A stretch of DNA of 64,000 nucleotides. Origin: a virus. Under the pieces are notes generated by a model. The model was not told the DNA's origin, made no database searches, and saw only the letters and a program-made list of their open reading frames with translations. The DNA is taken from positions 124,265 through 188,264 of IMG/VR virus record IMGVR_UViG_3300020473_002200. One strand, given 5' to 3'. Of the stretch, positions 20,615 through 32,305 are shown piece by piece (position 1 is the stretch's first letter; the number at the start of each line of letters is the position of its first letter). The position numbers were made by a program, and so were the translations under genes.

Positions 20615-21253
20615 ATGAGAAGCAAATTAAGAACATTAATTAGAGAAATGCTTGAAGATGAGCTTAGTCCAGTCGCTCCGCAACGAACAATACCCCAGAA
20701 TGAATGGACTTTATTGCAGTCTGGTGATCCAAGAAGAGAGCAAGTAAAACAAAACTTATTCGATTTAGTGCAGCAAACATACGCTCCTATCGGTGGCCAC
20801 TTTAAAATTACTAGTCCTGATAGTCTAGATAGATACACCTATTGGGTCGTTAAAGATATTGATGATGATGCAGATGTTGATGTTGCGATTATGGGAAAAC
20901 CTGATGTCGGCGGAGTAAAAATGGGGGCCGCAGCAAATGATGGCTCACCACAGGCCTCAGGGGAATATAAGAGCAAATCTGCAGAGCTTAGAGCTGGTGG
21001 ATCTATTGCCGGTATTGGGAATTGGTGGGGTGAGGTTAGCGGAAAGCCTGCGTACGCCATGTTAAAAAGAGGCGCAAAGCCAGTTGAGGATGAAGCGAAG
21101 GTTGCACAATTACTCGCAGGTGATGACTATATTTTTCATGGAGAACACCCGGACCCAAATGCTCCGCCATTGTTTAAGAGCGCAAAGGGTTGGTATACTA
21201 AAAAGTTCGGAGCTAAAAGCTCAACAAAGATCATATTGGGGAATCCAGCGTGA
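20615..21253 (+). CDS. Leader-tagged hypothetical protein (possible GNAT-like fold)
   Basis: MRSKLRTLIREMLE leader; LFDLVQQTYAPIGGH...GVKMGAAANDGS. Confidence 0.45.
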   Translation: MRSKLRTLIREMLEDELSPVAPQRTIPQNEWTLLQSGDPRREQVKQNLFDLVQQTYAPIGGHFKITSPDSLDRYTYWVVKDIDDDADVDVAIMGKPDVGGVKMGAAANDGSPQASGEYKSKSAELRAGGSIAGIGNWWGEVSGKPAYAMLKRGAKPVEDEAKVAQLLAGDDYIFHGEHPDPNAPPLFKSAKGWYTKKFGAKSSTKIILGNPA

Positions 21254-21441
21254 ACTTATTACGAGAATATATAAGCGCGCTATTAGAGTTTAGTATAAAG
21301 GCTAATAGGAAGAACACTCACCAAGATGGAACATGTCAAAGTCGTGGTTATATGAGCGGGAAAGATGTGACATGGACCGGCGACGATACAAATGACGAGC
21401 TGTATGGCTGGTATAAAAAAATGGGAATGATGGAGGACTAA
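21250..21441 (+). CDS. Leader-tagged small protein
   Basis: MNLLREYISALLE leader. Confidence 0.55.
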   Translation: MNLLREYISALLEFSIKANRKNTHQDGTCQSRGYMSGKDVTWTGDDTNDELYGWYKKMGMMED

Positions 21442-21680
21442 TGAAAGTCACAAAACGACAATTAAGAAAAATCATTTCAGAAGCGCTAGCACTGGATCTA
21501 GAAGTCGGCGATGTAATTCTTACTGGTCGTTTTAAAAACAAGAGAACAGTCGTAAAGAGTATTGGGACTGATGACATGGGCCAACCTACTATAAACGGGA
21601 TGAAAGCGCTCAGCTTTAGAATAGAGAAGCTGATGCCAAAATCTAAATGGAGTAAAAAGTCTCTGGAGGAAGAAGAGTGA
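21441..21680 (+). CDS. Leader-tagged small KOW/SH3-like protein
   Basis: MKVTKRQLRKIISE leader then LEVGDVILTG. Confidence 0.55.
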   Translation: MKVTKRQLRKIISEALALDLEVGDVILTGRFKNKRTVVKSIGTDDMGQPTINGMKALSFRIEKLMPKSKWSKKSLEEEE

Positions 21681-22645
21681 AAATCACAAAACGACAACTG
21701 CGAAGAATTATCAGGGAATCTACCTACGAAGATTGGCGAGATGATATTAACATCGCTGATGATTGGTATGGTGATCTTAGCAACACGCAAGATGAGTATA
21801 GTAAGCTACGATCACCTGCAGGTAACAGGATAGGAATAAGCTGGTACCTTGGCGTTCCTATGTGGTCTAGCTATGCCAAGTCGACGTTCATGAAAAGGTA
21901 TGGAAATCGCGCTGGCGCTACAGTTAGGATTGTTAGAGACCGGAAGGACCCTCCACTGGTAGGGTATATTACAGTTAACGGTATAAAGTCTCTTGACCTC
22001 AGCGACCTTAGCAACGTCGATAAACGCCCTCGAGAACTAGCTGACTTACTGAAAAAAACTATGGACGAAAGTCTTAAAGACCCCGAGCGAATGGCTCAGT
22101 ACAAAGATTACCTGAATTCAAATCGAGGGCCCGGGATGGTAATGGCCTCTGCAAGATCGTCATGCTCTAAGATGAGAATCACAGAGGCGCAACTAAGAAG
22201 AATTGTTAAAGAATCTTTGAAGACAGAAATATTCGGCTTTGGTAAAAAGAAGAAGAAAGAAAGCAAAATAGAAAAACCCGTTTATCTTATAAGAGTAGAT
22301 AGTTTTCCAAAAAGCTGGGCCGCCCATTCCTACAGAATAAGTAAAGACCAAGATAATGAAAATAGAAAATCTGAAAAGCAACTAGGAAAAGAGATTGGCG
22401 CAGAAGTAGACATGGCTCTTTTGAATAATCGATATATTCTAGCTGTGCAAAAGCCTTATGAAACTAGCGCTGAAGCAAAAAGCGTAGTTAGTAAAATAAA
22501 CACCGTAGTTAAGAAAATGCTTGAAGATGAATCAATCCACTTTGGCAAAGATAAGCAAACTCCAGAAGCAATAAAGTCTGGTAAAATAGCGTCTATTCTT
22601 GTGTGGGATTCGGAAAAAAGTCTTCCTTGGGAGAAGTTGCTATAA
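21677..22645 (+). CDS. Leader-tagged hypothetical protein, apparent fusion of two leader modules
   Basis: MKITKRQLRRIIRE at the start and MRITEAQLRRIVKE in frame at 22172. Confidence 0.6.
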   Translation: MKITKRQLRRIIRESTYEDWRDDINIADDWYGDLSNTQDEYSKLRSPAGNRIGISWYLGVPMWSSYAKSTFMKRYGNRAGATVRIVRDRKDPPLVGYITVNGIKSLDLSDLSNVDKRPRELADLLKKTMDESLKDPERMAQYKDYLNSNRGPGMVMASARSSCSKMRITEAQLRRIVKESLKTEIFGFGKKKKKESKIEKPVYLIRVDSFPKSWAAHSYRISKDQDNENRKSEKQLGKEIGAEVDMALLNNRYILAVQKPYETSAEAKSVVSKINTVVKKMLEDESIHFGKDKQTPEAIKSGKIASILVWDSEKSLPWEKLL

Positions 22646-30172: not shown

Positions 30173-30705
30173 ATCTCCTACGCGAGTACATAAAAGAATT
30201 GCTATCTGAGAATAAGCTGTCCAGCGCTGAGATACAACACCTGCAGGCCATCAAACGCGGTTCAAGACATGAACGACGACGACCTCAGGCAATCGTCATA
30301 GGCAGGCTAATAGATAAGGGTTTTGTAACCGGCGATATGAAAGGTAATCAATTTCTCCCAGGTTACGGCGCTTCATCTAGTGCTAGCAACCTTGCCATCA
30401 CTCCAGAGGGTGAAGCAGCATTAAGAGCAACTTTAGGCAAGGCAGACTCAGACATGGCCAAGTACCAAAAGATAATAATGCAAGCGGTCATCGACGCTGC
30501 AGGCAGTTCGGTACCAGAACACGAGTTGCCAGGTTACAACCCAAAGACATTCAAGCTAAGAGGAAAGTACCGCAAAGCGTTTGACGAGTTGCGTGGGTTC
30601 GGAAGTGACATCGACGCCTTAACGATACAGAGAGATTCACAAGGCAACAGAATGGTTAGCCCAGGACCTGATTTTGAGCGTATTAAAAGCGAGTTAGGAT
30701 TATGA
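30169..30705 (+). CDS. Leader-tagged hypothetical protein
   Basis: MNLLREYIKELLSE leader. Confidence 0.6.
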   Translation: MNLLREYIKELLSENKLSSAEIQHLQAIKRGSRHERRRPQAIVIGRLIDKGFVTGDMKGNQFLPGYGASSSASNLAITPEGEAALRATLGKADSDMAKYQKIIMQAVIDAAGSSVPEHELPGYNPKTFKLRGKYRKAFDELRGFGSDIDALTIQRDSQGNRMVSPGPDFERIKSELGL

Positions 30706-31499
30706 AACTACTTCGCGAGTACATAAGAGAGCTACTGAAGGAAGATCCAATGGGTTTTGTTCAGGATCTCGCCGCGGCATCTGATCAATTCCGTGACGAA
30801 GACTTTAACGAGTTTCACGGCGGCAACCCAGGTAAGTCAGGAGGCAGGGCGATCAAGCGTGCATTTGCTGCCAACGCTGATTATAACTTTCTCAACTCCT
30901 TAGATACTGTTCATTGGATTAAAGACGCTTACAATCTCAAACCGCTCATAGGCAGATCTCGAGATGAATTATCAGCCACTATGACTCTGCCTAGCGAGCC
31001 TTTTAAAGCGCCAAGAGGTTTTAATGCTGACCTAGAGTTAGGCTTGTGGATAAAGGGTCGTATAACTCTGGCAGCCAATAGTCAAGACGACCTGTACACT
31101 GGTACTTACTTCGATTACATGAGAGGACGTGATCCCGAACAGTTTGAAAAAGATAAGCACCGCAAAGCATCATCAGGTGTAAACAAGAGACCCACTGTTT
31201 CAAAAGATTATAGCAGGTACGCAAAGCTAAAAAGAGGCAATGAGTACCATGAAAAGCTGGCCAGAAAGATTCCGTATGTTCTGGATCAGTCGACTTGGAA
31301 TCCAGCTTCTATAAACGAGGCGCTAGTAGACAACTGGCGAGCAAAGGGACTGATTGTCTCGGACCAAAGTATTATCGATGCAATCAAGGACAACCCAGAA
31401 GGCGACGGTGTAGGCTGGCTAAAAGAATTTTATGAGATGGCTGAGGTATTCGACGTTCCAATGTATGACACAGACAAAAACGTAATCTGGAGCCCGTAA
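30702..31499 (+). CDS. Leader-tagged hypothetical protein
   Basis: [14 protein letters not shown] leader. Confidence 0.6.
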   Translation: MKLLREYIRELLKEDPMGFVQDLAAASDQFRDEDFNEFHGGNPGKSGGRAIKRAFAANADYNFLNSLDTVHWIKDAYNLKPLIGRSRDELSATMTLPSEPFKAPRGFNADLELGLWIKGRITLAANSQDDLYTGTYFDYMRGRDPEQFEKDKHRKASSGVNKRPTVSKDYSRYAKLKRGNEYHEKLARKIPYVLDQSTWNPASINEALVDNWRAKGLIVSDQSIIDAIKDNPEGDGVGWLKEFYEMAEVFDVPMYDTDKNVIWSP

Positions 31500-32305
31500 T
31501 GAAACTACTACGCGAGTACATAAGAGAACTTTTAAATGAGAAAGCCCGAGTGCGCGGCTATATTAAGCCGTCTTCTTCTTTTCACACACTTCTACAGTGG
31601 GAGCTTGTGGTAGAAGAATTACTACAGCTTCAGAAGCAGGGTGTTGATACTCGAGGAGGCATGAGCTTAAATCAGAGACTACTTCAGATAATCGATGAAT
31701 ATTTTGGTTTTCAATACAATATCGAGGTAGAGAGGTACGATCTCCTAACTCAAAAGAACATTTTAGACTTCATCGAGGATTTTACCAATCACAGATTTTG
31801 GGGACTGGAGAGAGAGTTCGGTAGTTATTTTCCCGATATAAGTAAGTTGAAGTTTGCTTACTTCTATTCTCGTGGAGATCTTGAGCCTCATGTACTGATG
31901 GATGAAGAATTTACAACTCAGATTTATGGTGGTCTAGACAATCAAAAACGTCTTAGTCACTATACAACTCAAGCGGGAGTAGAAAGAATTCAGGCAGCTA
32001 TTGACTCAGGTCGACCTTTCGATATATCATGTTTCACCGTTGCGGAACGCCCTTTCTTTAGACCTGAATCTAGCTTGGTCGTGGAGTTAATAGGTAATGT
32101 TCGTGGGGGTTTTAGGAGTGATATTAAATCTGTCGCAGTTGATACTGGGCGCAGAGCATGTAATATGTATAGACTAGAGTACCCTGGCAAAGATCAGGAT
32201 AATATTTGTAGAGAGCTGGACTCTTGTGATAGCGAAGTTCGTACTTCTTTGTGGAATGAATATATAGCGACGCCTGAAAAGATATTAAGCGTTAAGAAGG
32301 TATAG
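31499..32305 (+). CDS. Leader-tagged hypothetical protein
   Basis: [14 protein letters not shown] leader. Confidence 0.6.
   Translation: MKLLREYIRELLNEKARVRGYIKPSSSFHTLLQWELVVEELLQLQKQGVDTRGGMSLNQRLLQIIDEYFGFQYNIEVERYDLLTQKNILDFIEDFTNHRFWGLEREFGSYFPDISKLKFAYFYSRGDLEPHVLMDEEFTTQIYGGLDNQKRLSHYTTQAGVERIQAAIDSGRPFDISCFTVAERPFFRPESSLVVELIGNVRGGFRSDIKSVAVDTGRRACNMYRLEYPGKDQDNICRELDSCDSEVRTSLWNEYIATPEKILSVKKV

Follow-up and report, generated by a model that had tools for sequence, protein, structure and literature searches.

Two classes of leader peptide, probably T4-like capsid-targeting propeptides, on an array of mostly unrelated genes in an uncultured virus genome

T-even phages possess diverse internal proteins that share only a capsid-targeting sequence (CTS), and their ip genes are recognised by this signal sequence (PMC3012670, PMC12373910). 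In phage T4, suppressor studies placed the targeting function at residues 4 and 7 of the CTS and processing at residues 8 and 10; the protease gp21 cleaves after L/I-x-E, and gp22 is cut at a Glu-Ala bond (PMC9026906). Alt, which T4 packages and injects, is an ADP-ribosyltransferase (ART) of the R-S-E type (PMC5512222), while the three internal proteins (Ips) of T4 were recently shown to block a different GmrSD nuclease each (PMC12373910). Here, we describe an array of genes, most of which open with one of two kinds of short leader peptide, in a 64-kb stretch of viral DNA (hereafter, the window) comprising the last 64 kb of the 188,264-base IMG/VR virus record IMGVR_UViG_3300020473_002200, which is estimated to be 67% complete. 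Our analysis suggests that the leaders are probably capsid-targeting propeptides of the T4 kind and that the array represents a much-expanded internal-protein locus of this phage lineage.

The array consists of 18 open reading frames (ORFs) lying end to end on the + strand (20615–32305), 15 of which open with a short charged amphipathic peptide that does not resemble a secretion or membrane signal. A preliminary description of the window had named these 15 leader-bearing starts, and all are true ORF starts carrying the peptides as described there. Alignment of the window leaders gave a length of 14 residues for both classes. Class A is found on ten ORFs (starting at 21250, 24739, 25692, 26816, 27550, 28602, 29189, 30169, 30702 and 31499) and class B, MK(I/V)(T/A)KxQLRxxIxE, on four (21441, 21677, 22645 and 23462; alignment consensus MKITKxQLRRIIRE), with the remaining ORF bearing a variant. 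The genes and partial leaders of the array are as follows.

20615..21253, + strand: g20615, 212 residues; variant leader MRSKLRTLIREMLEDE with a weak class B score (E 0.015)
21250..21441, + strand: g21250, 63 residues; class A leader; begins with GTG, which overlaps the preceding stop as GTGA
21441..21680, + strand: g21441, 79 residues; class B leader; small basic cargo, kept in ~20 related loci
21677..22645, + strand: g21677, 322 residues; class B leader and a second in-frame class B leader, MRITEAQLRRIVKE, from 22172
22645..22971, + strand: g22645, 108 residues; class B leader; TAATG junction
22968..23138, + strand: leaderless ORF within the array, 56 residues; hydrophobic N-terminal stretch as judged by eye
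23139..23465, + strand: staphylococcal-nuclease homologue, 108 residues; leaderless; Pfam SNase, E 1.3e-11
23462..24742, + strand: g23462, 426 residues; class B leader, then a predicted RelA/SpoT-type (p)ppGpp-hydrolase HD domain (residues ~21–165)
near 24050, + strand: relic internal class A-like leader of g23462, SLKEYIGLLIELDE, ahead of the second cargo module
24739..25695, + strand: g24739, 318 residues; class A leader (MSLLRRYIRE)
25692..26816, + strand: g25692, 374 residues; class A leader
26816..27553, + strand: g26816, 245 residues; class A leader, then a predicted R-S-ExE ART-fold cargo
27550..28245, + strand: g27550, 231 residues; class A leader; g26816 paralogue that shares its R / S-W / E-x-E residues
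28242..28263, + strand: orphan truncated class A leader; 22 nucleotides (nt) identical to 28602–28623
28274..28600, + strand: leaderless 2x[4Fe-4S] ferredoxin gene; Pfam Fer4 families
28602..29192, + strand: g28602, 196 residues; class A leader, then a possible GNAT-like fold
29189..30172, + strand: g29189, 327 residues; class A leader
30169..30705, + strand: g30169, 178 residues; class A leader; basic cargo, isoelectric point (pI) 9.7
30702..31499, + strand: g30702, 265 residues; class A leader; cargo family present in eight related loci
31499..32305, + strand: g31499, 268 residues; class A leader; final tagged gene of the array

Leader profiles were run against a six-frame translation of the whole 188,264-base record, and significant matches were confined to the array: ten of class A (E <= 8e-6) and four of class B. 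Away from gene starts, the profiles gave just the internal class B copy at 22172 (E 0.017) and the truncated orphan at 28242, both within the array. The preliminary description had proposed such a profile scan of this genome and its relatives, and had argued that a leader also common on clearly non-virion genes, such as dnaK or thyX, would refute its interpretation. The result is an array-restricted leader here and 22–28 tagged genes in larger relatives, and in this genome the profiles found no leader on the genes for GroEL, the sigma factor, deformylase, GMP reductase, phosphoenolpyruvate (PEP) carboxykinase or similar proteins. The class B likeness of the N-terminus of PEP carboxykinase (41347) was dismissed as chance, the Pfam domain already beginning at residue 5. 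One weak look-alike was seen outside the array, an ORF of 78 residues (G000:C1:105546-105782 of the record, 18.7 kb before the window) starting MNTKLIREFIRLFLE, a diverged class A-like leader that scores E 0.035 with a profile built from relatives only and has Phe where the T4 tag has Phe.

The leader is nearly all that these proteins have in common. After removal of the first 16 residues, BLASTP found only g26816 and g27550 to be related (30% identity, E 1e-17) and no other related pair among the 15 tagged proteins, in keeping with the preliminary description, which had called them mostly unrelated beyond the leader. It had also noted that almost all of the leaders end in (L/I)-x-E; we found [LIVM]-x-E with its Glu at residue 13–15 in 15/15 tagged proteins, set against a background of 39% of the 163 other genes of the genome with [LIVM]xE anywhere in the first 20 residues. 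In AlphaFold2 (AF2) models, the leader appears as a detached, low-confidence helix ahead of a compact domain.

Selection acts on the leader as a peptide. Pairwise comparison of codons 2–12 of the class A leaders gave 202 identical, 205 synonymous and 88 non-synonymous codon pairs, such that 70% of the differing codons are synonymous, and identity is lower at the third codon position than at the second (0.56 vs 0.89). Nucleotide identity is 0.75 across the class A leader, compared with 0.29 in the 30 nt upstream, a background level, and 0.26 downstream. The synonymous differences together with the unrelated upstream DNA indicate selection on the peptide, and the codon statistics rule out a shared promoter, an RNA element or a pure DNA site as the conserved entity.

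The peptide is T4-like in format. In the T4 record, the N-termini read MKTYQEFIAE↓A in ipII and ipIII, MAKINELLRE↓S in gp24 and MLKEQLIAE↓A in gp22. Relative to MKTYQEFIAE, the class A leader is identical at M1, K2, E6, I8 and E10 and has Y for F at position 7. In 105 class A leaders of relatives, the positions conserved most strongly include L4 (98%), Y7 (99%) and I8 (94%). At residues 12–14, leaders of both classes have a hydrophobic-x-Glu triplet, whose Glu14, a position outside both of the DNA patterns used to search for relatives, is conserved in 96% of class B and 80% of class A leaders of relatives, and [LIVM]xE occurs within the first 20 residues in 99–100% of relatives' leaders.

The record also encodes a T4-type head. 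Its head genes are arranged in the order terminase, portal, protease, small proteins, scaffold and capsid, and include a T4-type prohead protease (Peptidase_S77, 88.5 bits, over the cut-off) and a major capsid protein of the Gp23 family (217 bits), between which sit an acidic scaffold gene and genes for two small proteins. The scaffold N-terminus (..YEQAIAEAKQL) aligns with that of T4 gp22 (..KEQLIAEAQKI), keeping the IAE↓A site, while the capsid protein has L-L-E50 and L-R-E59 near the position at which T4 gp23 is cut (after L-T-E65). The capsid protein shares 30–45% identity with its counterparts in cultured phages (Flavobacterium phage immuto, Microcystis phage Mel-JY01 and Rhodothermus phage RM378), with the best full-length match in an uncultured 484-kb phage, which points to a distant, uncultured 'far-T4' lineage with no close cultured member. 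The habitat of the lineage is apparently marine.

The two small proteins between protease and scaffold (G000:C1:69562-70269; L001 2509–3216), of 135 residues (MAKVSRAVLKSLVKECLVEILSE) and 93 residues (MKKSVKLTPRILRRMIQEE), are conserved in three relatives, have leader-like N-termini and lie roughly in the place held by gp67/gp68 in the T4 head-gene cluster. Leader profiles match them marginally (E 0.06–0.24), the 93-residue protein ranking second among the 163 non-array genes (E 0.057). Directly after the capsid gene, a gene encoding 519 residues (G000:C1:75088-76647; no Pfam match in its first 453 residues) starts MKSLRELY and later reads KLRNILKE.

Related loci were sought by scanning IMG/VR with IUPAC patterns; 43 stretches matched the class A leader, and over 119 matched that of class B. 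In the 1.26 Mb of related DNA fetched, the leader profiles mark 731 ORFs encoding 659 distinct proteins, which fall into 282 cargo clusters, including 192 singletons; the cargos have a median length of 117 residues. Three larger related records (69–92% complete) hold 17 class B and 10 class A, 23 B and 5 A, and 12 B and 10 A tagged genes, respectively, and a fourth, 40% complete, holds six. An S77 protease was found in four of five related records, the fifth being a 32%-complete fragment. The co-occurrence of this protease and the 22–28 tagged genes per larger relative lend support to the capsid-targeting reading. Weaker class B-like starts were seen in the 484-kb phage LR756508 (e.g. MRLSERKLRRIVKEE) and in gp190 of the cultured Flavobacterium phage vB_FspM_immuto (MKKSQLRQIIKE); class A leaders were not found in T4, RM378, Mel-JY01, immuto or LR756508. 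Megablast of the array against 50,697 phage records returned no matches, nor did tblastn of 22-residue leader queries, the latter being uninformative as the queries were too short and the low-complexity filter was on.

Comparison with these relatives shows that tag and cargo can move separately. A gene for 209 residues in L004 that has a canonical class B leader is 80% identical to g20615, and the likeness begins right after the leader, so that these orthologues have exchanged leaders. (A 131-member 'family' around g20615 was rejected as an artefact of single-linkage chaining; it has five true homologues only.) In the g28602 family, found widely among relatives, 21 members belong to class A and 3 to class B, all lining up in shared alignment columns, and the HD-domain cargo is tagged with class B here but with class A in L009:550-1377. 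The C-terminal half of g23462 corresponds to a stand-alone class A gene (L013:5385-6056), and the relic SLKEYIGLLIELDE sits where the leader of that gene would be, with its L-x-E sites retained; g21677 probably represents two fused cassettes or has an internal start. The internal leaders of both g23462 and g21677 keep an intact L/I-x-E. The preliminary description had inferred a portable packaging tag, and its portability is thus borne out by leader swaps, by the occurrence of both classes on the same cargo family and by fused cassettes with internal leaders.

Tagging is also specific to the gene. The preliminary description had counted a nuclease-like protein among the tagged cargos; however, the SNase gene (23139–23465) has no leader, and its homologues are leaderless in four relatives as well, which argues that tagging is gene-specific and not a side effect of position in the array. 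The other leaderless gene with a recognisable product, that for ferredoxin, lies between identical 22-nt leader copies (28242–28263 and 28602–28623), the first of which runs into the ferredoxin ribosome-binding site, so that this cassette seems to have been acquired through recombination between leaders.

A further footprint of recombination was found in the closest relative, L008, which is syntenic with the window through GMP reductase to 20648, at the array start, and then carries other cargos. In L008 (8318–9294), a g28602 orthologue (89% nucleotide identity) stands directly before a g26816 orthologue (81%), compared with 26816–29239 in the window, and a 52-nt junction of L008 aligns to two different window leaders, revealing a permuted gene order with a breakpoint inside a leader. 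Shared leaders therefore serve as crossover points, which we interpret as resulting from the tag rather than being its purpose.

The junctions of the array are tight, consisting of ATGA or GTGA (4-nt overlap), TAATG (1-nt overlap) or gaps of 0–2 nt, with the surroundings of the leaderless ferredoxin gene as the sole exception; the translational coupling noted in the preliminary description is, with that exception, evident from both the junction coordinates and the DNA. Where ATGA or GTGA overlaps the upstream stop, codon 2 must begin with A, and residue 2 of the leader is therefore K, N, S or R. Coupling geometry thus shapes the leader peptide at residue 2 (gene starts 21250–31499).

Functions could be suggested for a few of the cargos, of which the clearest are g26816 and g27550. 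In an alignment of 18 sequences of their family (two from the window, two from related loci and the rest from metagenome and database collections), R94-G95, S152-W153 and E207-x-E209 are invariant, and W153 is always followed by Ser or Thr, giving the Ser-x-Ser/Thr pattern. The AF2 model of g26816 (predicted local distance difference test score, pLDDT, 87; predicted template-modelling score, pTM, 0.82) was compared with 48,161 PDB representatives, and the first 26 rows were ARTs or the ART-fold tRNA 2'-phosphotransferase, the best matches being TreX (Z 6.9, root mean square deviation 3.1, 97 aligned), Vis (6.6), Arr (6.2), Scabin (5.9), pertussis S1 (5.6) and LT (5.5). Foldseek agreed weakly, with ART rows having the highest probabilities (0.4–0.7). 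These cargos had no Pfam or PHROG family at E <= 0.01, and the family profile found no PDB sequence match; without a match to a curated ART sequence family, we file them as ART-fold proteins rather than as members of a named family. The g26816 model and the conserved residues indicate R-S-ExE ART-fold proteins that would be functional analogues of T4 Alt, and the precedent of Alt, together with two such cargos, supports the capsid-targeting reading by analogy.

The N-terminal region of g23462 appears to be a RelA/SpoT-type (p)ppGpp-hydrolase domain: residues 21–156 match SpoT/RelA hydrolase domains in the PDB (phmmer, E 9.5e-11), the protein matches phrog_990 (E 5e-23), Pfam HD_4 scores 25.5 bits, just below its 27.2 cut-off, a match to HD was also obtained and the H-D dipeptide is present. 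The evidence is weaker for g28602, which has no Pfam match. The Foldseek and PDB-scan lists for its AF2 model (pLDDT 80) consist nearly entirely of GNATs, at weak scores (E >= 0.02; Z 4.3–5.9), and 15% of one related Atlas cluster is annotated Acetyltransf_1, weakly suggesting a GNAT-like fold. The family has a conserved G-x-G-P-x-x-Y-D. Hence, of four cargo types guessed in the preliminary description, for which it had suggested structure prediction and Foldseek searches, the ART-like and (p)ppGpp-hydrolase-like cargos are upheld, the GNAT-like cargo weakly so, and the nuclease-like protein is not among the tagged genes.

For 11 of the 15 tagged proteins, Pfam and PHROGs were silent. The g20615 cargo had no Pfam, PHROG or Atlas match, and PDB sequence searches with g24739, g25692, g29189, g30702 and g31499 were empty or non-significant. 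Apart from the ART-like, (p)ppGpp-hydrolase-like and GNAT-like cargos, these searches thus found no functionally characterised relatives of the tagged proteins. Among 110 cargo representatives from relatives, about a dozen have a Pfam family, comprising DUF192, phosphatidylserine decarboxylase, Zeta_toxin, RNase_T, SLT, phage lysozyme, HD_4, M78, SprT, a STAND NTPase and ART-PolyVal. Several of these domains (ART-PolyVal, Zeta_toxin, SLT/lysozyme, M78 and SprT) are characteristic of polyvalent proteins, for which injection with the DNA is predicted.

We propose that the tagged genes would be translated from a single polycistronic, translationally coupled message and that, during prohead assembly, the 14-residue amphipathic N-terminal helix would dock each product onto the scaffold core. 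The gp21-type S77 protease would then cut after the Glu of L/I-x-E, at predicted sites nested at residues 6, 10 and 14 in class A, at residue 14 alone in class B and internally in the fusions. Mature cargo would thereby be freed inside the head and would exit with the DNA at the next infection, and the enzymes (two putative ARTs, a (p)ppGpp hydrolase, a GNAT-like protein and ~ten others) could act before any phage gene expression, with host take-over or counter-defence as their likely roles. As the cassettes all begin with the same ~40 nt, leader-to-leader recombination may add, remove, permute and fuse them.

A broader reading, the parts of which we put forward jointly and only tentatively, is that such arrays might amount to a library of effectors delivered by the virion, combinatorial in make-up and driven by recombination. 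About one gene in ten (a rough estimate from the 22–28 per genome) might then be addressed to the capsid by two interchangeable tags, the two classes might specify different loading (copy number, core position or ejection order), the cassettes might be the unbundled equivalent of polyvalent proteins and the internal tags might let the head protease split fused cargos after packaging.

The array is flanked by a rich auxiliary gene set (14424–20016 and 32308–42795). Upstream lie genes for a GroEL-type chaperonin, a sigma-70-family factor, a peptide deformylase and a GMP reductase/IMPDH-family enzyme, and the set further includes a PAP2 phosphatase, a PALP (cysteine-synthase-like) enzyme and a full-length PEP carboxykinase. 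No enrichment was seen for the T4 late promoter TATAAATA, which occurs 8 times on the plus strand and 10 times on the minus strand. The motif (C/T)ATATTTA(A/G) was seen 10–40 nt before several structural and other genes (window 17361, 32984 and 54475; C1:36525, 53130, 78048 and 89624), one copy preceding a gene for 717 residues at 33022, just past the array, and represents a candidate late promoter of the lineage.

Several observations weigh against the leaders being capsid-targeting propeptides. The leader profiles do not retrieve the CTS of T4 IPIII (E 35) and match the T4 gp24 propeptide marginally (E 0.045), so that kinship with T4 rests on five identities and one conservative match in ten residues, and the link would be one of shared format and context rather than provable homology. 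Most mature cargos are acidic (pI 5–6), unlike the basic IPs of T4, Z-scores for the ART and GNAT folds are moderate (<= 6.9 and <= 5.9, respectively) and come without Pfam support, and the tagged phosphatidylserine decarboxylase of one relative is an odd thing to package. Moreover, the array is placed among metabolic or early-looking genes, the candidate late motif is not at the array (the nearest upstream copy, at 17361, is 3 kb away) and no promoter or terminator stands out there, sigma-70 and terminator scans being at chance level. The packaging interpretation in the preliminary description thus stands in part: the in-silico tests agree with a T4-style propeptide, but the T4 CTS was not retrieved and the nuclease is untagged.

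The same observations could be accommodated if the leader were an N-terminal helix with another job in the producing cell (co-assembly, cellular targeting, or a degron or activation peptide) and were never packaged. This would suit an array that lies amid early or metabolic-type genes with no recognisable late promoter, cargos that are mostly acidic enzymes and not small basic DNA-associated proteins, and profiles that miss the T4 CTS; the current infection could just as well be served by a (p)ppGpp hydrolase or an ART, and ModA and ModB of T4 are ARTs not known to be packaged. We nevertheless think this account unlikely, if worth serious consideration, since it leaves unexplained the prohead-protease motif at the tag end, with Glu14 conserved at 80–96%, the co-occurrence of the S77 protease and the likeness to the N-termini of T4 head proteins and of the phage's own small head-module proteins, and since a charged, amphipathic leader is not a secretion or membrane signal. 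Alternatively, the tagged proteins may enter the prohead yet serve the particle itself, as core or scaffold accessories, in DNA condensation or in an inner-body-like structure, and not be injected. T4 IPIII has a suspected role in head morphogenesis, the heads of phiKZ and SPN3US hold tens of processed structural internal proteins (PMC9026906, PMC5694885), and many of the relatives' cargos are small (median 117 residues) and without an enzymatic signature. Conversely, the ART, (p)ppGpp-hydrolase and GNAT-type cargos here and the zeta-toxin, lysozyme and M78 cargos of relatives make sense only against a cell, and the cargo set changes among close relatives, which fits an arms race and not a conserved structure; we regard a purely structural role as improbable. 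Least probable, to the point that we give it very little credence, is that conservation acts on a DNA or RNA element (a site at which recombination captures cassettes, or one for translational coupling or re-initiation) with the peptide as a by-product. The ferredoxin gene flanked by identical 22-nt leader copies, the breakpoints between relatives inside leaders and the restriction of residue 2 to A-initial codons by the ATGA/GTGA overlaps would fit such an element; however, the excess of synonymous differences (70% of differing leader codons) and the lower identity at third (0.56) than at second (0.89) codon positions do not, both classes and the leaders of distant phages keep the residue pattern and not the bases, internal non-initiating leader copies are likewise conserved as peptides, and recombination at leaders more plausibly follows from the sharing of the tag.

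If the leaders are indeed capsid-targeting propeptides, a 14-residue motif would provide a sequence-only label for proteins delivered with the DNA by an uncultured giant-phage clade, and the 659 proteins found here, most without a known domain, would form a catalogue of candidate anti-defence or host-takeover effectors. The T4 CTS trick would be old and general across distant T4-like lineages, with shared tags driving the shuffling of cassettes, and the leaders would offer a natural set of packaging tags for engineered protein delivery by phage capsids. Should the broader joint reading hold too, the tag alone would pick out hundreds of families of first-minute takeover or anti-defence proteins in uncultured marine phages. 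Full-text literature searches turned up neither a paper containing these leader strings nor one joining capsid targeting to uncultured T4-like phages.

Of the systems described, that of T4 itself (IPI, IPII, IPIII and Alt with gp21) would be the nearest to the array. In both, a short N-terminal propeptide ending in L/I-x-E is the only part common to unrelated proteins, the encoded protease belongs to the gp21 family (S77), the scaffold is gp22-like and the capsid protein is gp23, an apparent R-S-E ART is among the cargo, as with Alt, and the genes, like the T4 ip genes, lie outside the head module. The two differ in that the leader here has 14 residues, up to three nested sites and two sequence classes, and in that there are 15 tagged genes here and 22–28 in three larger related records, compared with 4 in T4. 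The cargo here is mostly acidic and includes several probable enzymes, whereas the T4 IPs are small, basic GmrSD inhibitors, and the cassettes are translationally coupled in long arrays, with some fused and bearing internal leaders. The variable ip loci of T-even phages (Repoila et al. 1994, as relayed in PMC3012670) are likewise hotspots of diverse injected proteins with a common leader and with cargo that varies between relatives; at least 10 Ips are reported in that account across the whole group, a number exceeded here by a single genome.

In phiKZ, 201phi2-1 and SPN3US, a gp21-related protease cuts many of the proteins inside the head after Glu, and paralogues with conserved N-termini and redundant propeptide cleavage sites occur (PMC5694885, PMC9026906), as would be the case here; however, the propeptides of those phages are mostly at least 100 residues long, their motif is S/A-x-E and their capsid and scaffold are not T4-like. 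Set beside such giant-phage ejection proteins, the tag described here is T4-sized and its motif is L/I-x-E. For polyvalent proteins, too, delivery together with the DNA is predicted (Iyer et al. 2017, PMC5512222). They combine 2–15 domains per polypeptide, whereas here each domain has one separately tagged gene; most tagged genes of the array lack a recognised domain and the identified ones show one each, with only g23462 and g21677 looking like two-cassette fusions, and the likeness would be one of functional analogy, not of membership. The principle that unrelated internal proteins may share only a CTS is already established for T-even phages (PMC3012670, PMC9026906, PMC12373910). What the present locus appears to add is its occurrence in a distant lineage, two classes of 14-residue tag, the number of tagged genes, a mostly acidic cargo with putative enzymes, and coupled arrays with fusions.

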